Shown piece by piece: positions 1,897 through 16,704 of a stretch of 16,704 bases of DNA; position 1 is the first letter of the stretch; each line of letters starts with the position of its first letter. The stretch comes from a virus (taxonomy: Duplodnaviria; Heunggongvirae; Uroviricota; Caudoviricetes). The stretch lies in the IMG/VR virus record IMGVR_UViG_2541047712_000007, one strand, 5' to 3'. Position numbers and translations under genes: made by a program. The notes below the pieces were generated by a model. That model ran no database searches. It saw only the letters and a program-made list of their open reading frames with translations, and had not been told where the DNA came from.

Positions 1897-2350
1897 CCCC
1901 GACCTCCTCAAATTGAGGAGGTCGAAAGTATCAACCAGTTACCGCGCCGACTTCCTCAAATTGAGGTTCCCGAAAATATCAGCGGGTTAACGATCAAACT
2001 GGCGAGTAATTAAACTGCGAAAATTTCGCATGTGAGGGATGTAGTCGGCGCAATTTTGCGCTTTGCTTTAATCTCAGTAAGTTACCGCGCCAACTTCCAC
2101 AGTCTGTGGAAATTGGGAAGAATCAACGGTTTAGGCCTTAATCATCTGCGTAATCATAAGTAATCATAATGTTCATTCAGCCACGCAATTTTGCGTTATC
2201 GGGAATATCAGCAAGTTACCGCGCCGGATTCCGCCAATGGCTGTTTCCGAAAGAATCAACGGGTTAGGCTGGTTTCCCCGATGTTCGCCGCTGGCGAATT
2301 TCGAAAATATCAACCAGTTACCGCCGCAACCGCTCCGGCTTCTTCCAGTG
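1897..2350. repeat. Degenerate direct-repeat array: four units of conserved box, 24-28 bp variable hairpin-prone segment, second conserved box
   Basis: Left boxes aaagtatcaaccagttaccgcgcc (1925-1948), tcagtaagttaccgcgcc (2075-2092), tatcagcaagttaccgcgcc (2206-2225), aaaatatcaaccagttaccgccgc (2303-2326). Right boxes aaaatatcagcgggttaacg (1973-1992), aagaatcaacggtttaggcc (2118-2137), aaagaatcaacgggttaggc (2250-2269). A perfect 9-bp-stem hairpin gacctcctcAAATTgaggaggtc sits at 1901-1923. Spacers carry near-palindromes gcgaaaatttcgc / gcgcaattttgcgc. Confidence 0.65.
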
Positions 2351-2599
2351 GTACGTTATTTTTTCTTTCTCCCGATGCAGTTCAACGCGGCGATTGTAGG
2401 CCAGCATTTCAAGAACGCGGATCCGTATGTTGCGCATATCAACATCATTAAGCTGGATACCATCACGGCACATCACCTCAGCAACAACACGCGCATAATT
2501 TTCGGCTGTCACGCTGTCCGGCTGCGTGGTCTGTTCGTCAGCCTGCTGGCTGATTCCAGATACGCGGCGGATTAATCCCAGTAGTTCGGCTTCTGTCAT
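2318..2599 (-). CDS. Hypothetical protein (93 aa), last gene of the packaging operon
   Basis: ATG at 2599 with a GAGG Shine-Dalgarno about 9 nt upstream, 13 nt after the TerL stop. Helix-rich translation. Its last 13 codons lie inside repeat unit 4. No family recognised. Confidence 0.5.
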   Translation of the reverse strand: MTEAELLGLIRRVSGISQQADEQTTQPDSVTAENYARVVAEVMCRDGIQLNDVDMRNIRIRVLEMLAYNRRVELHREKEKITYHWKKPERLRR

Positions 2600-2612
2600 G
2601 CTGCTGACCTCA

Positions 2613-4274
2613 TTACACCCCGCTGAATTCTTCCAGTTTCTGGCGGTGGCTGTCGCTTATATCAAAAGCAAAATCCTCATGCTCTGCCTGGAATGTACCA
2701 AACGCCATCAGTGCCGCCACGCTCGGGTCTATCTTGTTCGGTGATTTTTTCTTGTTCGGCTTGATATTGGCGTTCGCGTCACTCTGCATCACGACGTTAC
2801 TCATCGACCAGGACAACACCGGATCGCCACGATGCACAATCACCCTGCGGTTAACAAAAACTTCGAACGATTTCGCCGCCGGACTGAATCTGAGGTAGGT
2901 TTGCGGGAACGGCTCCACCTCAAAACCTGCCCCCTGTAATTGCGTTCTGAGATGCGTGGCGTTCCACGTATCAAAGCCCACCAGCCTGATATGAAATTTC
3001 TCCGCGTCCTGCATGATGTCATCTCTGATCCGGTCGTAATCAATGCAGTCGCCAGGCGTTGTGCGTATCCAGCCCGCTTTAGCCCACTGACGATAGACAG
3101 CGCGGTTTTTATTGGCGGGGTTCTGTAGCTGGAACTCCGGCAGATAATGACGGGAAATCAGCATAATGGTTTTACCGACCGGAAAGGCATAGCATACGCT
3201 GGAAATATCGCTGGTTGATGATAAATCCAGCCCCGCGTAACACTCCTGGCCGTGTAAATCTTCCTCCGTGAACGTTCCGGCACACTCAGCCCATGCGCCG
3301 TTACCCATCCACGGGGTAGCCCCCTGGCACCAGATATTAAATCGCTTTGTCATCATCTCCACCCACTGCGACGGTATTCCCCGCGCTTTCTGGATGGTTG
3401 AGGCCAGTTTTTCACGATCGACGGAAACATCGATATTGGGATTCGCCTTTATCCACATCGCCGGATCGTCAACCTCGCTTTCATCATCCAGCTCGTAAAT
3501 CAGCACGAACATGGATTCGTTCACCTCTTCACCATCCAGTATCTGGCAGCAATAGTCGTAGTGTTGTTTACAGGCTGAAACAACGTTGCTCCCCGATGTG
3601 GTGATGGCAAATAACAGCCCCTCCGGACGCGCCCCCATTCCCAGTTCAAGCGCGGAATAAACCCCGTTGTCAGGGTGCAGGTGATATTCATCCACAATGG
3701 CAAGACTCGGGTTTGTACCTTCAATGGTTGCCGCTTTTGCTGCCAGCGGCTTTAACAGGCTGTTGCTTTTCGGGTGTATCACCTTATGCGCCTGAATATT
3801 CACTCTCTTGCGTAACGGTCGGGATAAAAGGCACATCTGACGCGCATCATCAAAAACGATCCGCGCCTGGTCGCGGCTCACCGCTGCGGTGTAAATATCC
3901 TGCTGCCCGTTCTCCATAATCAAAAACCAGTTAGCCAGAATCGCGGCTGTCGTGGATTTCGCATTTTTGCGCGGCACTTCGATAAAGGCGCTCGTGTATT
4001 TGCGCCTTCCGGTGGCCTTAACCTTAAAGCCGAGGATGCACGCAAAGGCAAACTGCTGCCACGGTTCCAGCTCAATGGGTCTTCCACGCATCGGCCCTTT
4101 TACGTGCGGGCACACCCTGGAAAAGGCAATAAACCGCTCAACAACCTCACGATCGAACATGTAAAGGGGGTTTTCAAGGTCCGAAAAGTATCGTTCAACG
4201 GTCTGTTTCAGCCGTTTACAGGCCGGAATCTTGCCCGTTTTTACGTCTTCTGCGTACTTATTCCAGGCGGTCAA
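2613..4274 (-). CDS. terL: Terminase large subunit (553 aa)
   Basis: N-terminus TAWNKYAEDVKTGKIPACKRLKQTVERY is typical of TerL. Size, and position immediately after TerS with a 17-nt overlap, fit. The first codon at 4272-4274 is TTG (GAGGA upstream), so the exact start is uncertain. Confidence 0.92.
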   Translation of the reverse strand: MTAWNKYAEDVKTGKIPACKRLKQTVERYFSDLENPLYMFDREVVERFIAFSRVCPHVKGPMRGRPIELEPWQQFAFACILGFKVKATGRRKYTSAFIEVPRKNAKSTTAAILANWFLIMENGQQDIYTAAVSRDQARIVFDDARQMCLLSRPLRKRVNIQAHKVIHPKSNSLLKPLAAKAATIEGTNPSLAIVDEYHLHPDNGVYSALELGMGARPEGLLFAITTSGSNVVSACKQHYDYCCQILDGEEVNESMFVLIYELDDESEVDDPAMWIKANPNIDVSVDREKLASTIQKARGIPSQWVEMMTKRFNIWCQGATPWMGNGAWAECAGTFTEEDLHGQECYAGLDLSSTSDISSVCYAFPVGKTIMLISRHYLPEFQLQNPANKNRAVYRQWAKAGWIRTTPGDCIDYDRIRDDIMQDAEKFHIRLVGFDTWNATHLRTQLQGAGFEVEPFPQTYLRFSPAAKSFEVFVNRRVIVHRGDPVLSWSMSNVVMQSDANANIKPNKKKSPNKIDPSVAALMAFGTFQAEHEDFAFDISDSHRQKLEEFSGV

Positions 4275-10498: not shown

Positions 10499-12253
10499 TT
10501 ATAAAAACGCGTCGCACTCGTCTGTTGTTATTGCGTTAGTCTGCGTTACTCCCTTAACTTTCCGCGTAATATATTCATGTCCGTAAACTTTCGCGGCTGG
10601 CTTCATAGCCTTGCCAAAGTCATTTACGTTTAGCGGTTTGCTCCTGCCTGCGTACGCCATAAACGCCAGATAGACGCGGTAAAGACTGTTTCTGGTCGTG
10701 TACTTCACTGAATCGCCACCGCCGCCCATCATCAGGCCGCGTGCTTCCTCCAGAAAATTCAGGAACTGGCAAAACTCAATAACCGGATCCGTCTGTTGCT
10801 TTATTGCCAGAGCTTCATCACCGTCACGCTGTTCCAGTAGTAAAGCCCTCGCCTTCTCAGGGTCGGTAAAGTTCGCCAGCAATCGGCGGATAATGACAGG
10901 GATTTCAGCCGCGATCTTTTCCGGTAGCTCCCTGTCTTTTTCGGCCTCACTGACGATATTGTCGAAACGGAAAATCACGCGACGACGTGCCACACCTCCG
11001 GCCCGTTCGGTGAATATCATCGGGTTATTGTTGGTCGCCAGCACCACCGCCCTGATTACAGCCGTGAAACGCTTTTCGTATTTCGGGTTAATTTCCACGG
11101 GGTCACCGCCCGTGATTTTCTTGATGCCCGTTCCTTCGCCTGTATATTTCGGCTGGTCAGCCAGGACGATAAGACGACTCCCGACAACCTGCGCACGTCC
11201 ACCAGCATCATCAAGCGATGTCATTTCAGCGCTTACCGTGTTCTGTTTCCCTGCCAGAAGGCTGGCTATGTGTGTGAATGTACTTTTACCGCTCCCGCCG
11301 TCTCCGGTGGCCTCAATAAACATCTGCCAGTCGTACCGGTTCGCCATAATCATGTACAGCGCGGCACATATACGCATCATCTTGCGCGGGTCTTTTCCGG
11401 CTGCGTGCTCAAGCCATTTATGAAAGTTTGGCGCGTTATCGCGGATGTTCTCCCCTGGTGCTGGTGGCGTGTACTCAATGCCGTTGTGCGTGGTGATCCA
11501 GTTCTCCGGCGTGTGCGGGGAAAATTCCCCCGTTTTCAGGTCAAGCGCACCATTGGCGAACGGCAGCAAATCGCCGGACGGCTCGCCCATTGGTTCGGCA
11601 ATAACTTTTAACGCTTCCACGGCGTTATTGATTACGCGCTTGCTGAAAGTGGCCCTGTGCTCTGAATAGATCGCCACCATTTCGCGGCTAAGTTCCATTG
11701 TGCTGACCGGACACCATACCCCGCCGCGCCATACGTGAACGATTTCACTTTCAGGATGTACGCAAACGCCATCAAAGCGATCGGCAAGCAGCTGCGCGCG
11801 CTCACTGTCCGCCATCTGCGAAAGTTGCGCCTTTTGCTTTACCGGAAGCTCAATGACCAGACCATCAGAAAGATTCTGGCGCTCACGGGCCAGATATTCG
11901 CGCCAGTTCTCCACCTTCTGACCGTGCATACCCTCAGGATAAAAATTTGCATCCTGTACGCCTGCCGCCGCCAGCTTCTGGCCAATCGCCTTTATCATTA
12001 CTGGCGCAAGATATCCGGCCCTGAATATGCGCACGGATTTTCTGCCTTCCGGCACAATTTGCAGCTTATCCAGTTCTGATAACTGCTGCTCCCCAAGCCA
12101 CACAGGAGGCTCATTATCTCCGGCCATACGCGCATCATGTTCCTGCCATTGTTTCGCGTGTGCCCAGGCATCACTACCCGCAAAAATAATGACTTCTGTT
12201 CCTTTGTGTTTTATGCCGCGTGACTGCTGTTTTACGTTCGGTGCCAGTTTCAT
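10499..12253 (-). CDS. P4-family primase / SF3-type helicase replication protein (584 aa)
   Basis: Walker A motif TGDGGSGKSTF in the C-terminal half, size, and the position upstream of the iteron origin. ATG overlaps the upstream stop (ATGA). Confidence 0.9.
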   Translation of the reverse strand: MKLAPNVKQQSRGIKHKGTEVIIFAGSDAWAHAKQWQEHDARMAGDNEPPVWLGEQQLSELDKLQIVPEGRKSVRIFRAGYLAPVMIKAIGQKLAAAGVQDANFYPEGMHGQKVENWREYLARERQNLSDGLVIELPVKQKAQLSQMADSERAQLLADRFDGVCVHPESEIVHVWRGGVWCPVSTMELSREMVAIYSEHRATFSKRVINNAVEALKVIAEPMGEPSGDLLPFANGALDLKTGEFSPHTPENWITTHNGIEYTPPAPGENIRDNAPNFHKWLEHAAGKDPRKMMRICAALYMIMANRYDWQMFIEATGDGGSGKSTFTHIASLLAGKQNTVSAEMTSLDDAGGRAQVVGSRLIVLADQPKYTGEGTGIKKITGGDPVEINPKYEKRFTAVIRAVVLATNNNPMIFTERAGGVARRRVIFRFDNIVSEAEKDRELPEKIAAEIPVIIRRLLANFTDPEKARALLLEQRDGDEALAIKQQTDPVIEFCQFLNFLEEARGLMMGGGGDSVKYTTRNSLYRVYLAFMAYAGRSKPLNVNDFGKAMKPAAKVYGHEYITRKVKGVTQTNAITTDECDAFL

Positions 12254-13369: not shown

Positions 13370-13586
13370 GGTGCACCTCCTGCACATCAGCCATGATAAT
13401 TTTTCCGGCCTTATCCAGTGCCTGATCGGCTTTTAGCTGCACAAATGCTAAATAATGGAAGATGCATTCTGATTCTCTGGCTGCGTGTTTATGCGCCCTG
13501 TCAGCAATAACAGAAATATCAATAAGCGCGTGCATCAGCGTAGTGAGCGCGGCGGCTGCTGCGTCCGGTGTGGTTTTATTGCACAT
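13362..13586 (-). CDS. Hypothetical protein (74 aa)
   Basis: ATG at 13586 with AGGGGGT Shine-Dalgarno. Confidence 0.5.
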   Translation of the reverse strand: MCNKTTPDAAAAALTTLMHALIDISVIADRAHKHAARESECIFHYLAFVQLKADQALDKAGKIIMADVQEVHHA

Positions 13587-13782
13587 GGCCTACCCCCTGG
13601 CGAATACGGGCAGCGAATACCATCACGCAGCCATCAGGAGATTGCTGACGCGCTTCCTGTTCGCTGGTGGCCTCGATGGTAATCACGCGCGGTTGTGCCG
13701 TGCTCAGGGCGATAAAACGCCAGATGTATTTATTCAGGTCGTGCGAATCCCGCCCTTGCGGGTGTGTGGTATGATTTCTCAT
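13576..13782 (-). CDS. Hypothetical protein (68 aa), first gene of the leftward operon
   Basis: ATG at 13782 with GAGG 5 nt upstream. It is the C-terminal, plausible part of a 430-aa track ORF whose remainder is antisense to plus-strand genes and the operator region. Confidence 0.45.
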   Translation of the reverse strand: MRNHTTHPQGRDSHDLNKYIWRFIALSTAQPRVITIEATSEQEARQQSPDGCVMVFAARIRQGVGHVQ

Positions 13783-13878
13783 AGCTACCTCGATACTTTC
13801 GCTATCGTTGGTGGTTAGAAGCCCGGTTAGTGTTAGCGCACTGCCGGGTTTCGTCGTTTCTGCACCTTGCGCCAACAA

Positions 13879-13931
13879 GGTGTTGAACACCAATTTAAAC
13901 CCAGGTGTTAAACACGTCAAGTGTTGAACAC
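13879..13931. promoter_or_regulatory. Triple palindromic operator in a divergent promoter region
   Basis: Three copies of the palindrome GTGTT-N-AACAC: gtgttgaacac (13880-13890), gtgttaaacac (13905-13915), gtgttgaacac (13921-13931), lying between the leftward operon start (13782) and the plus-strand RHH gene (13982). Confidence 0.7.
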
Positions 13932-13981
13932 TTATTTTTTTTCCTGCATACTGCATTTGTTTTTTATGAGGGGTACACCAC

Positions 13982-14161
13982 ATGGCGACAAAAGCAGTAA
14001 ACGCAAAATCACAAACCGTTGCGGCAAGGGTTCCGCATGAAGTTATGAACAATGTTGAGGCGGTAAAAATGCCTGGCGAAAGTACGGGGCAATTTGTTAC
14101 TGCGGCATTAAAACGAGAAGTTGAATATCGCCAGCGGCGCAAGGCCAAAGAACCAGAGTAA
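13982..14161 (+). CDS. Ribbon-helix-helix (Arc/CopG-like) DNA-binding protein, 59 aa; candidate island repressor
   Basis: ATG at 13982 with GAGGGG Shine-Dalgarno. The translation has an RHH-like beta-strand (QTVAARVPHEV) followed by two helices. Below the ORF-track length cutoff; I translated it directly. Confidence 0.6.
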   Translation: MATKAVNAKSQTVAARVPHEVMNNVEAVKMPGESTGQFVTAALKREVEYRQRRKAKEPE

Positions 14162-14218
14162 TCACCATCAGCGCCGTGGTGTGAGGAACTACGGCGCATT
14201 GCTATGCAGGACAACACA

Positions 14219-14392
14219 ATGACCGATAAAGAATTGACCAAAACATTATCACCGGCACGGAAAAGACGGCGCAGAAAGATAGAGCATGAATCAGAAAGAT
14301 TCGCGCCATGTGCTTTTGCCCTTGAGCAATTCCTTAAAGAGTACAGGGAAAAGCGCTCATTGCAGGTATGGCAACGAACTGAACCAGACTGA
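14219..14392 (+). CDS. Hypothetical small basic protein (about 57 aa)
   Basis: ATG at 14219 with AGGA 7 nt upstream (track ORF starts at 14204). Arg-rich (RKRRRRK); followed by a plus-strand terminator. Confidence 0.3.
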   Translation: MTDKELTKTLSPARKRRRRKIEHESERFAPCAFALEQFLKEYREKRSLQVWQRTEPD

Positions 14393-14470
14393 TTGCATTG
14401 CCCACCAGCCGCAAATGTGGCATTGTTGGCAATGCTCATGCGTTGGGGATAACGTGTAGCTTGTGTCGAG

Positions 14471-14500
14471 GGGCCACCGTAGCGGGTGGCCTTTGTTTTG
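14471..14500 (+). terminator. Rho-independent terminator (plus strand)
   Basis: Hairpin ggccacc-gtagcg-ggtggcc followed by tttgttttg. Confidence 0.6.
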
Positions 14501-14594
14501 CCCGTTATTCGGCAATTGTGGCGCTTCTCCACATGGTTGATATAATCCCACTGCTCAGATTCATTTTTTGCGCAGTAGGTTAATTGTTCACAAA

Positions 14595-14626
14595 GGCGCT
14601 CCGGCAACGGGGCGCTTTTTGTTTTT
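14595..14626 (+). terminator. Rho-independent terminator (plus strand), GNRA loop
   Basis: Hairpin gcgctccg-GCAA-cggggcgc (8 bp including one G-U) followed by tttttgttttt. Confidence 0.6.
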
Positions 14627-14920
14627 ATTAGTTTGTAGAAACCTGACTCAGAGATAATGCTCATATTCTGATTGCCGTCAGGGGTGTAAGTTAAATTTAC
14701 TCCCTTTTTATCATCAAACATCTGCAACGCTCTGGCGTTAGCAATATTGGTTTCACTCCCGCCAGTAAGGCCGGAAATAACCGGAATAATTTCGGCAAAA
14801 TTTTGCAGATTCTGTTTTTCAGGACGAACGAAGCCCCGCCCTTGTTCGGGAGAATATCCAGTATTCATGGTTAGATCTCTGTATTAGTGGATGGGTGGCG
14901 GCTGTGTGCCGCCAGCCTGA

Positions 14921-15109
14921 TTAGTGAACTGCCTCGCAGCTGTCCTTCCATGCCAGAACTTCGGATAAAGACCAGCCAACGGAACGACCGCCCAGCTTAC
15001 GCCGTGATGGGAATTGTCCGGCTTTTTCCAGGCGGTACCGACATGAGCGGCTCAGGCCTGTAAGTTGCTGACATTCTTTTTCACGTATAAAGCGATCTGT
15101 GCTTAACAC
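14921..15109 (-). CDS. alpA: AlpA-family transcriptional regulator / excisionase-like protein (62 aa)
   Basis: QQLTGLSRSCRYRLEKAGQFP...KLGGRSVGWSLSEVLAW matches the AlpA winged-helix signature. GTG start at 15109 with AGGGGGAA upstream. Confidence 0.8.
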   Translation of the reverse strand: MLSTDRFIREKECQQLTGLSRSCRYRLEKAGQFPSRRKLGGRSVGWSLSEVLAWKDSCEAVH

Positions 15110-15474: not shown

Positions 15475-16704
15475 TTATATTTCTCTGGCTATTGGCAATG
15501 TGGTTACGTTTTCATGTGTTCCCGCCAGTATCCCTAACCGCTCCGTCCACATATCCAGCGCGTCACGTTTCGCATCCAGATAACGGGAATGGTTATAGAC
15601 TCGTTGCATCCCTGGCATCTGATGACCTGTAAGCTGCTCCACGACGTGAGGATCCACGCCTAAATCGTTCAGCATCGTTGTAAAGGTGCGCCGGATGTCA
15701 TGCAGTGACCAGTGAGGGTGTTTTAGCCTCCTGTGCGCTAATCTGCCGTACTGCGACACGCTTGTTTCCTGTTTCACTTCCCCCAGCAATAAGCCCGTGT
15801 GCCTGTTCTGCTCCACCAGCTGCGTGACGAACGGCAGTATTGCTTCCGGTATGGGCCGGAATATTGCCACCTTCGTTTTGCTGTGTTCTTTCGGCACGGT
15901 CCAGAGCATTTCGGTAAAATCCCACTCGCTGATCTCCGATAACCTCAGTTCTACCGTCCGGCATCCGAAAACAATCAGGAGGCGGATTAGTGCGACGTAG
16001 TAAGGGGAAAATATTTTTTTGTCCAGTGCCTGCAATAATTCGCCAAGTTCTTTGGTGCTTAAGACGCGCTCGCTTATATCCGGTTTTTTCCCAACGTCCG
16101 CCACACTCATATCATCAAGAACGTTGCTGATTGCATAGCGCCGCCTCCGGCAGAACTTAAGCGCCTGTTTGCACGTCTGTAGCAAGAATCCGGCAGTAAC
16201 AGGCGTTCGCTTTGCCACCTGGTCAAAACAGGCCAGCCAGTGCCGTAGCTCGCATTTATCCAGCGGCATAGCACCAATGTGCTGTATTACGTGATTATTA
16301 AGGCGCTTTTTCAGGGCGGCATAATCCACGCGGTTTTCCTTTGCGTACGACTCAAGCCAGTAGGTGAGCGCATCGCCAACCGTTACCGGCTTTAACGCTT
16401 CCTGTACGGTGTAATTCATTTCATGACGTGGATTTTTCCCCTCTGCCAGCCATGCGCGACACTGGGCGGCTTTTTCCCTGGCTGATTTCAGGCTCAGATC
16501 AGGATAATTTCCCAGCTTAATGCGTTCCGGTGGTGCCCCCCTTCCCGTTCCGGCCCTGTAAGTGAAATACCAGGTTAAAAGGCCACTGGTTGAATGCCTG
16601 ACGCTCAGGTTTCCACCGTCATTAAGAAAGGCTGTTTTTTGGGCGGGTGTGCCGTTGATTTTCCTCAGCTGTGTATCGCTCAGTTTGTTAAGTGCTCTGC
16701 TCAT
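15475..16704 (-). CDS. int: Tyrosine integrase, P4-like family (409 aa)
   Basis: C-terminal catalytic signature LHDIRRTF...GHQMPGMQRVYNHSRY (His-x-x-Arg box plus terminal Tyr) and a long N-terminal arm/core-binding region. Start codon is the last three bases of the window. Confidence 0.93.
   Translation of the reverse strand: MSRALNKLSDTQLRKINGTPAQKTAFLNDGGNLSVRHSTSGLLTWYFTYRAGTGRGAPPERIKLGNYPDLSLKSAREKAAQCRAWLAEGKNPRHEMNYTVQEALKPVTVGDALTYWLESYAKENRVDYAALKKRLNNHVIQHIGAMPLDKCELRHWLACFDQVAKRTPVTAGFLLQTCKQALKFCRRRRYAISNVLDDMSVADVGKKPDISERVLSTKELGELLQALDKKIFSPYYVALIRLLIVFGCRTVELRLSEISEWDFTEMLWTVPKEHSKTKVAIFRPIPEAILPFVTQLVEQNRHTGLLLGEVKQETSVSQYGRLAHRRLKHPHWSLHDIRRTFTTMLNDLGVDPHVVEQLTGHQMPGMQRVYNHSRYLDAKRDALDMWTERLGILAGTHENVTTLPIAREI

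Follow-up and report, generated by a model that had tools for sequence, protein, structure and literature searches.

Introduction

What keeps a phage satellite silent in the chromosome of its host? For PICIs (phage-inducible chromosomal islands) of Gram-negative bacteria, AlpA has been described as an activator, an ORF3 reporter was found to be AlpA-dependent and helper phages were found to turn on alpA, while a global repressor was called unclear (PMC6092414). The silent state was an open question in the founding paper, and no repressor for these islands surfaced in our literature search, which covered open-access papers. Here, we analyse the virus record IMGVR_UViG_2541047712_000007, a stretch of 16,704 nucleotides (called the window throughout, with positions counted from its first nucleotide), part of which is a satellite island of Escherichia coli. 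Between alpA and the leftward operon of this island lies a control region, which offers a concrete candidate repressor: a protein of 59 amino acids of the YlcI/YnfO family, with a predicted ribbon-helix-helix (RHH) fold. It is encoded on the plus strand, next to three short palindromic sites at two divergent promoters. We consider it likely, from sequence comparison, that the control region serves a P4-related capsid-forming PICI (cf-PICI) as its switch for immunity and control. The 59-residue protein is probably the repressor, acting on sites that match it and keeping the satellite silent.

What is observed directly is how the region is laid out, the fixed geometry of its sites and promoters, the matched variation of protein and sites (Table 1), the strand of a structured RNA and the maintenance of a long open frame. 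The coordinates of all features are collected in Table 2.

Operators and divergent promoters

An earlier note on this DNA had proposed a repressor-operator module, made up of three copies of GTGTT-N-AACAC between the leftward operon and the plus-strand gene for the 59-residue protein. The copies (O1 to O3) are all exact and lie within 52 bp, against an expectation, by our own arithmetic, of about 0.016 exact matches in 16.7 kb. When up to one mismatch is allowed, the window contains four occurrences versus 0.41 expected, a number reached by none of 200 shuffled sequences. The sites and genes were found where the note placed them, but its borders needed correction: the start codon of the adjoining leftward gene ends at 13782, so that the intergenic region runs from 13783 to 13981. 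The leftward promoter P(L) was found independently by a promoter scan; the rightward promoter P(R) scores 8/12, which is below the threshold of the scan.

Two further candidates for operators were rejected. A one-mismatch copy (GTGCTTAACAC) is located at 15099–15109, on the GTG start codon of alpA. It is probably a chance match and is treated as such, because the related island EcCICFT073 (CFT073) encodes the same AlpA protein and its operators are of another class. The hairpin loop GTGTTAGCGCAC resembles a site, but is invariant across operator classes.

The layout was compared in about 20 related islands from eight genera in all, with loci from Pectobacterium, Dryocola, Yokenella, Xenorhabdus, Klebsiella, Edwardsiella, one enterobacterial metagenome-assembled genome and several E. 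coli islands, the last differing in integrase, AlpA allele and replicase. A site at the position of O2, 76 nucleotides before the ATG of the repressor candidate, was detected in 16 of the 18 loci scanned (site B). At −66 from the same ATG, almost all loci contain GTCAA (TTCAA in two loci), the complement of the P(L) −35. This −35 is TTGACG in 14 of 17 loci and a one-base variant in the other three, and is followed after 17–18 nucleotides by a TAnnnT −10 in 16 of the 17. Directly after the P(L) −10, relatives have site A. The P(R) −10 is located at −36 in almost all loci, 29–30 nucleotides before the ATG, and reads TATACT or CATACT in 14 of 17 and TATATT or TACAAT in three. Site C, at −31, follows it immediately in most relatives; a site on the P(R) −35 is present in the window, in Edwardsiella and in the Klebsiella locus L032. 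The geometry of sites and promoters in about 17 loci and the co-variation of protein and operator described below both support a repressor-operator module between divergent promoters, as the note had suggested.

In Edwardsiella hoshinae (L020, 3733–4170), the RHH protein is identical over 57 residues, the three operators are the same and the nucleotide identity to window positions 13714–14151 is 92%; the island has a primase that is only 52% identical, an integrase of 23% and an AlpA of 33% identity. In L031 (Logan SRR10075306, 1467–2677), the RHH-operator layout, with three copies of GTGTCGGACAC, would directly control a KilA-N gene and the antisense RNA is absent, which means that the cassette also exists outside PICIs.

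Matched variation of protein and operator

All relatives share GTG and CAC at the two ends of the operator. Its centre varies by class, in step with residues 11–15 of the protein; eight classes can be distinguished (Table 1). Residues 12 and 14, which co-vary with the central operator bases, are predicted to be the ones that read the DNA. Two classes are separated by a single residue (methionine or leucine at position 12) and a single base (A or G).

Table 1. Classes of protein motif and the operator found with each
Class	Protein motif	Operator
1	QT[VLI]AAR	GTGTT[GA]AACAC
2	Q[SA]LK[SA]R	GTGTGG[CT]CCAC
3	[KR]KLEAR	GTGTCAGCCAC
	QS[VL]TAR	GTGTAAGACAC
	QMTTVR	GTGTATTTCAC
	QLTTVR	GTGTGTTTCAC
	KRFDVR	GTGTCGGACAC
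	AQKKIR	GTG[CT]ACCC[CT]CAC

The same pairings recur across hosts, class 1 in E. coli, Edwardsiella, Pectobacterium and Klebsiella, and class 3 in E. coli, Pectobacterium, Xenorhabdus and the enterobacterial metagenome-assembled genome. They also recur with different replicases: one operator class is found alongside D5_N primases, DUF927 and AAA_25 replicases. The operator class tracks the RHH allele only, not AlpA, the replicase type or orf57, the Arg-rich open reading frame (ORF) of 57 codons that follows the RHH gene. Three loci looked up after the classes had been defined fit expectation: an E. coli locus with KKLEAR, a Klebsiella locus with QTIAAR, and one with KRFDVR, which formed a new class.

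A natural swap is provided by the window and EcCICFT073. Between 13568 and 15299 they are almost identical outside one block of about 300 bp (13825–14130), in which the upper part of the RNA hairpin lies together with the operators, the two promoters and most of the RHH gene. The two islands encode AlpA under the same accession (WP_000953274.1) and an orf57 of the same sequence, but differ in RHH allele and operator class; because AlpA and orf57 are shared, they do not set the operator class. In three further loci (L023, L024 and L029), the same slot is filled by an unrelated Arc-like RHH protein (PHROG 228, E 2e-6) with inverted repeats of its own. Taken together, the recurrence across genera and replicases, the methionine-leucine pair, the later look-ups, the swap and the slot replacement argue against simple co-inheritance of protein and operator.

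The third of these loci, L029 (E. coli CP028381, 2501–3625), contains two tandem regulatory cassettes. One consists of a YlcI-type gene and an ORF of 75 residues with a related carboxy-terminal motif, KFALEDFVDKY. The other, in front of which a leftover copy of the antisense-RNA element remains, consists of an Arc-like RHH gene and an orf57 homologue.

The 59-residue YlcI/YnfO protein

The reading frame is a real gene, as the earlier note had it: RefSeq assigns its product to the YlcI/YnfO family, and this product scores 59.7 bits (E 2e-16) on the NCBIfam model NF041551, for which the cut-off is 30. The frame test gave 17 discriminating substitutions for the plus frame versus five for the long frame that overlaps it on the other strand. 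The predicted fold is strand-helix-helix, of about 45 residues, as in the RHH superfamily. Arg16 and Gly32-Glu33-Ser34 are invariant among 29 homologues, the latter forming the G-x-S/T/N turn that is looked for before the second helix. In the strand, most residues at positions 13 and 15 are small or hydrophobic, and those at 12 and 14 are variable and mostly polar, in the alternation expected of an RHH strand. On the other hand, neither a curated RHH model nor a solved RHH structure gave a significant match. When aligned to Arc with hhalign, the protein falls in register, with Arg16 on Arg13 and Pro18 on Pro15 of Arc, at an E-value of 0.008 and a probability of only 4.8%.

Longer variants, of 101 residues, are encoded in L021 and L036–L038 (E. 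coli). They have about 45 more residues at the carboxy-terminus, an extension that recalls the oligomerisation tail of P22 Mnt. The YlcI gene of E. coli K-12 is located near the cos site of DLP12, without this operator layout. No functional study of ylcI or ynfO surfaced among the papers that the literature search listed.

A candidate SymR-like antisense RNA and an eta-like frame

Between O1 and the first leftward gene, the plus strand can fold into the RNA listed in Table 2. In relatives, TAnnnT is kept at the position of its −10 despite differing amino-termini of the protein encoded there, and the −10 of the window aligns with the TAGAAT −10 of K-12, seven nucleotides before the annotated symR start. 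The Rfam model for SymR (RF01809) gives the window 33.3 bits (E 6e-4), and L025 36 bits, where the gathering score is 61. In the reverse direction, a covariance model made from 17 island sequences only (R1) finds the annotated K-12 symR with 30.4 bits (E 9e-7), with the start-codon CAU aligned. The RNAs are thus reciprocally similar in sequence and structure, and both lie on the antisense strand with the same placement with respect to the target's start codon; here the target is a Kil/Icd-like gene and not symE. Because the covariance models match both ways, shared ancestry of the SymE/SymR leader and the satellite module is suggested. The literature search surfaced no link between SymR and Icd-like genes.

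The strand is well defined. RNAalifold predicts 24 pairs, 12 of which have compensatory changes, and 59 strand-specific wobble pairs are possible on the plus strand only versus two on the minus strand only. The minimum free energy is −36.5 kcal/mol for the plus strand (z −4.8) and −20.8 kcal/mol for the minus strand (z −1.2). A hairpin at 13818–13852 had also been considered as a sense-strand leader like P4 CI; this was ruled out by the wobble asymmetry, the folding energies and the lack of a C4 match.

The first leftward gene encodes a homologue of P4 Kil, which itself scores 76.1 bits on the same model, NF033153. PHROG labels the protein as 'transcriptional repressor', a label apparently inherited from an obsolete annotation of a P4 'cI' ORF. 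The gene is the end of a much longer frame, here called eta-like, that remains open through the operators. In the intergenic region of about 190 nucleotides, 13 of 16 relatives have no in-phase stops at all, with about five to six in each of the other two frames. The frame is also open in L036–L038, even beside a separate and intact Bro-N gene. On the minus strand of window positions 14137–14664, RefSeq is inconsistent between genomes: a 'BRO-N' pseudogene is annotated in one, an 'Icd-like' pseudogene over the equivalent stretch in another (L021, 3386–3865), and nothing in CFT073. Given these inconsistent calls and a Bro-N match that is only faint (E 0.022, residues 49–91, about 14595–14721), the stretch is treated as part of the eta-like frame rather than as a decayed gene. 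Inside this faintly Bro-N-like part, between alpA and the plus-strand operon, a hairpin is located at 14590–14632 (−20.5 kcal/mol, z −5.2). It may terminate transcription in both directions, because a long T-tract lies on the plus strand and an A-tract precedes the hairpin.

The two-layer circuit envisaged in the earlier note for this AlpA-containing island holds as to the existence of layers of control, but its count was too low: with the SymR-like RNA and the eta-like frame there would be at least three, in a circuit of P4 type.

Proposed mechanism

We infer DNA binding, repression and the route of induction as follows. The RHH protein, expressed from P(R), would bind the 11-bp GTG-N5-CAC sites. 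On O1 and O2 it would cover the start and the spacer of P(L), shutting off an operon that starts with a Kil/Icd-like toxic protein and continues with replication and packaging genes; on O3, over the P(R) −35, it would limit its own synthesis. Transcripts that escape from P(L) would be met by the SymR-like RNA, masking the ribosome site of the first gene. For induction, by analogy with the PLL/eta/kil arrangement of P4, a helper phage would turn on alpA, leading to transcripts from the alpA promoter that could be translated through the eta-like frame. Such translated readthrough would escape termination, get round both controls, pass the operators into the operon and collide with transcription of the repressor gene. 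The scheme is consistent with the published data on AlpA as activator, on the AlpA-dependent ORF3 reporter and on helper phages that turn on alpA (PMC6092414).

Several points weigh against this scheme. Over-expression of AlpA alone is published to induce EcCICFT073, so any repressor must be bypassable, and no phenotype has been reported for the gene of the 59-residue protein. The window, like Edwardsiella, is without the otherwise conserved site after the P(R) −10; the P(R) −35 is weak in most relatives, and the start sites of both promoters are predicted only. The Pfam RHH models all remained below threshold, with faint matches to CB_ParB_C and PSK_trans_fac only, and sequence and profile searches of the PDB with the 59-residue protein were empty. 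Protein and upstream DNA are physically linked, so that their matched variation is partly inheritance, a concern that the swap and the cross-genus cases reduce without removing. Finally, several operator classes are non-palindromic and are found in either orientation, and because of this, binding may resemble that of omega, with one dimer per asymmetric repeat, rather than that of Arc.

The same observations have to be set against other explanations. The protein might bind the sites and act mainly as an activator or architectural protein, or regulate its own gene only, with silencing left to the antisense RNA and the absence of AlpA. This would agree with AlpA being necessary, and its over-expression sufficient, for induction of EcCICFT073, and with a poor P(R) −35 in most relatives that might need help; yet sites in a spacer and over start points are in positions typical of repressors, and in most relatives P(L) and P(R) each have a site directly after the −10, so we judge it unlikely. 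That the locus is a type II toxin-antitoxin pair, with an RHH antitoxin that autoregulates its own promoter, orf57 as the toxin and a leftward operon outside its control, is rather improbable. Two of the three sites are on the leftward promoter and not on that of the RHH gene, and a 57-nucleotide spacer with a hairpin would be unusual for such pairs; orf57, for its part, matches no toxin family, defence model or fold, and in the loci of other genera, where RHH gene and operators are retained, no homologue of it was found.

The repeats might also be bound by AlpA, by the primase or replicase, as iterons of an origin, or by orf57, the RHH-like protein having another function. Clustered short repeats near replication genes can be iterons, and the ori and crr of P4 are rich in repeats. 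The natural swap, in which the operator class changes with AlpA and orf57 identical, the occurrence of one class with all three kinds of replication protein, where only the RHH allele follows it, and the fixed distances at which the sites abut the promoter hexamers make this very unlikely. The idea that palindromes and small ORFs are functionless chance features of intergenic DNA has nothing but the small size of the ORFs to recommend it; with three exact copies present, an architecture kept across eight genera and the low dN/dS (ratio of non-synonymous to synonymous substitution rates) of the RHH gene, it is hardly credible. Repression from the matched sites by the 59-residue protein is the reading that we prefer.

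A wider proposal is offered tentatively, and we would expect it to fail in at least some part. The YlcI/YnfO cassette would be the missing master repressor, or immunity determinant, of Gram-negative PICIs and cf-PICIs, with at least eight exchangeable specificity classes that make islands heteroimmune in the manner of the lambdoid imm regions. AlpA-driven, translation-protected antisense transcription would silence the repressor and bypass the operators in one step, and chromosomal SymE/SymR would be a domesticated copy of the part made up of leader and antisense RNA.

The rightward operon beyond the repressor gene

The second ORF on the plus strand, orf57, exists as the earlier note had it and is annotated as a hypothetical protein in CFT073. 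Its homologues fall into 36 clusters, all named ones from Escherichia or Shigella, and a profile search of 1.8 billion proteins returned only nine representatives. The homologues share a core, SPARKRRRRK..EHESERFAPCAFALEQFLKEY, with an in-frame two-residue indel and variable carboxy-termini, and the start is always 57 nucleotides past the RHH gene, even where this is the Arc-like replacement. There was no match in Pfam, NCBIfam or PADLOC, and in PHROG only to a family of unknown function; an AlphaFold 2 (AF2) model contains two helices, with a predicted local distance difference test score (pLDDT) of 70, and gave no match in Foldseek. Compared with the overlapping eta-like frame, dN/dS is 0.27 vs 0.38 and discriminating substitutions number six versus five; because the third codon positions coincide, substitution patterns cannot separate the two. 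We think it likely that orf57 is a real gene. It is not a core part of the switch, because the loci of Xenorhabdus, Klebsiella, Pectobacterium, Dryocola, Yokenella and Edwardsiella, which keep the RHH gene and operators, yielded no homologue.

In the E. coli islands L022–L028, the spacer between the RHH gene and orf57 is fixed at 57 nucleotides and the sequence of the hairpin in it is kept; the hairpin may be a processing site, an attenuator or a target for a protein. The terminator that had been placed after orf57 is present; in relatives, a hairpin with a T-tract occupies the same position, and the stems differ.

Table 2. Coordinates of features in and around the control region
Feature	Position	Strand	Remarks
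First leftward gene, Icd-like / P4 Kil homologue, 68 aa	13576..13782	−	NF033153 70.4 bits; Icd-like in RefSeq
Eta-like long open frame, 430 codons	13576..14868	−	In phase with the icd-like gene; antisense through operators, RHH gene and orf57; ATG 50 nt below alpA
Candidate extended −10 of antisense RNA, TGgTATGAT	13767..13775	+	Inside icd-like coding region; read from sequence
SymR-like cis-antisense RNA, candidate	13781..13866	+	Two hairpins and U-rich tail (plus strand only); complementary to icd-like Shine-Dalgarno/start region
Operator O1, GTGTTGAACAC	13880..13890	.	Directly downstream of P(L) −10, over predicted P(L) start
Leftward promoter P(L)	13892..13920	−	−35 TTGACG 13915–13920, 17-nt spacer, −10 TAAATT 13892–13897; 9/12 in promoter scan
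Operator O2, GTGTTAAACAC	13905..13915	.	In P(L) spacer, adjoining P(L) −35
Operator O3, GTGTTGAACAC	13921..13931	.	Overlaps P(R) −35 (TTGAAC 13924–13929)
Rightward promoter P(R)	13924..13952	+	−35 TTGAAC, 17-nt spacer, −10 CATACT 13947–13952
YlcI/YnfO-family protein, 59 aa, RHH-like fold, predicted repressor	13982..14161	+	NF041551 match; dN/dS 0.12 in this frame
Spacer hairpin, 10 bp, without U-tract	14171..14197	+	Minimum free energy −19.4 kcal/mol, z −3.5; between RHH gene and orf57
orf57, 57-aa Arg-rich ORF, probable second gene of rightward operon	14219..14392	+	62 aa if read from 14204; WP_000130015.1 (hypothetical protein) in CFT073
Intrinsic terminator of rightward operon	14469..14502	+	Hairpin 14469–14494, −18.5 kcal/mol, then UUGUUUUG
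alpA	14921..15109	−	Pfam Phage_AlpA E 3e-18; upstream of leftward operon, same direction; activator of Gram-negative PICI induction (PMC6092414)

The island and its genomic setting

The sequence of the window is carried by the E. coli chromosome, with phoQ at 1–1461 and the island from about 2318 to the end of the window; in RefSeq, the identical locus lies between phoQ and roxA, and copies of the window with 100% identity are present in several complete genomes. The island contains terminase, HNH, connector, portal, protease and capsid genes, followed by PerC, SSB, the primase (10499–12253) and small ORFs, and beyond these the Icd-like gene, the control region, alpA and the integrase (15475–16704). 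All genes except those of the control region are oriented leftward. Besides int, alpA and a primase, the island has capsid, portal, protease, connector, HNH and terminase genes of its own, all oriented the same way, and it occupies a chromosomal att site; by gene content it is a capsid-forming PICI, a family described previously (10.1101/2022.09.08.507074). Among 5426 complete E. coli genomes, 1758 contain parts of the region 13500–14700, and 45 of these have at least 80% of it.

Comparison with known systems

If the switch operates as proposed, it would give the uncharacterised YlcI/YnfO family, present wholly or partly in about one third of complete E. coli genomes, a first function and, in residues 12 and 14 and the central operator bases, provide a candidate recognition code for which the natural allele swaps are ready controls. 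Because capsid-forming PICIs travel between species and work to engineer them into delivery vehicles is under way, a defined off-switch would be practically useful.

In the immI region of phage P22, the RHH repressors Mnt and Arc are found together with the divergent promoters Pant and Pmnt and the antisense RNA sar. The island is similar in having a small RHH protein with operators overlapping two divergent promoters that stand back to back, a short antisense RNA over the ribosome site of the first gene in the operon predicted to be repressed and, in some relatives, 101-residue variants with a carboxy-terminal extension, as in Mnt. It differs in that a sequence relationship to Arc or Mnt is undetectable, in having one repressor gene instead of two, in an operon that begins with a Kil/Icd-like gene followed by replication genes instead of ant, and in being a satellite and not a phage. 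The omega repressor of plasmid pSM19035 is an RHH protein that binds heptad repeats in either orientation; length and sequence of the repeats and the plasmid context are different, and there is no sequence similarity.

The type I toxin-antitoxin pair SymE/SymR of E. coli K-12 shares with the island an RNA that starts at the start codon of its target and runs antisense through the leader, and a repressor site just past the 3' end of the RNA: O1 here and, at symE, CTGT-N8-ACAG, which we take to be a LexA box. The differences are the score of 33 bits where 61 is the gathering score, the Kil/Icd-like target in place of SymE and an RHH repressor of the island in place of LexA.

To the P4 immunity region (PLL, vis, nested eta/kil, PLE and CI RNA), the likeness is one of layout. 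In P4, kil forms the end of eta, a frame of 199 codons that follows vis, an AlpA homologue; here, an AlpA/Vis homologue is likewise followed by a long frame, the last 65 or so codons of which are a Kil/Icd-family gene, with a promoter inside the frame and the primase operon downstream. A Kil/Icd first gene and a nested in-phase frame, two of the marks of a P4-type region, are thus present. For P4, PMC10111431 describes an internal promoter that is constitutive, transcription that terminates unless eta is translated, and the reading of eta from an upstream late promoter; a comparable 'Bro zone' exists in PICIs (PMC10111431). The divergent RHH gene, operators and SymR-like RNA inside the frame are particular to the island, P4 having neither RHH cassette nor SymR-like RNA. 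Conversely, no CI/seqA RNA (Rfam C4, isrK) was detected in the window at gathering score or at E-values up to 10, while both are present in P4 and in L025. In the latter (E. coli), the P4-type C4/CI and isrK/seqA elements are located at 2037–2225 (minus strand) and 2565–2637 (plus strand), inside an Ash-family first gene, and L025 also carries the RHH cassette and the SymR-like RNA; RNA-based and protein-based immunity can therefore coexist.

In the PICIs of Gram-positive bacteria (SaPIs, Staphylococcus aureus pathogenicity islands), the Stl/Rpr repressor gene is also divergent from the replication and packaging operon (PMC6092414), with no evident relationship in size or family to the protein described here. 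Stl is relieved by binding of a helper-phage protein, whereas here the published trigger is helper-dependent expression of alpA and no anti-repressor is known. Its elements, then, are familiar from elsewhere: P22 immI has RHH repressors at divergent promoters together with an antisense RNA, P4 has the nested frame and SymR is a known RNA of this kind; the control region links P4 immunity, P22-type RHH control and the SymE/SymR toxin-antitoxin system, which are usually treated apart.

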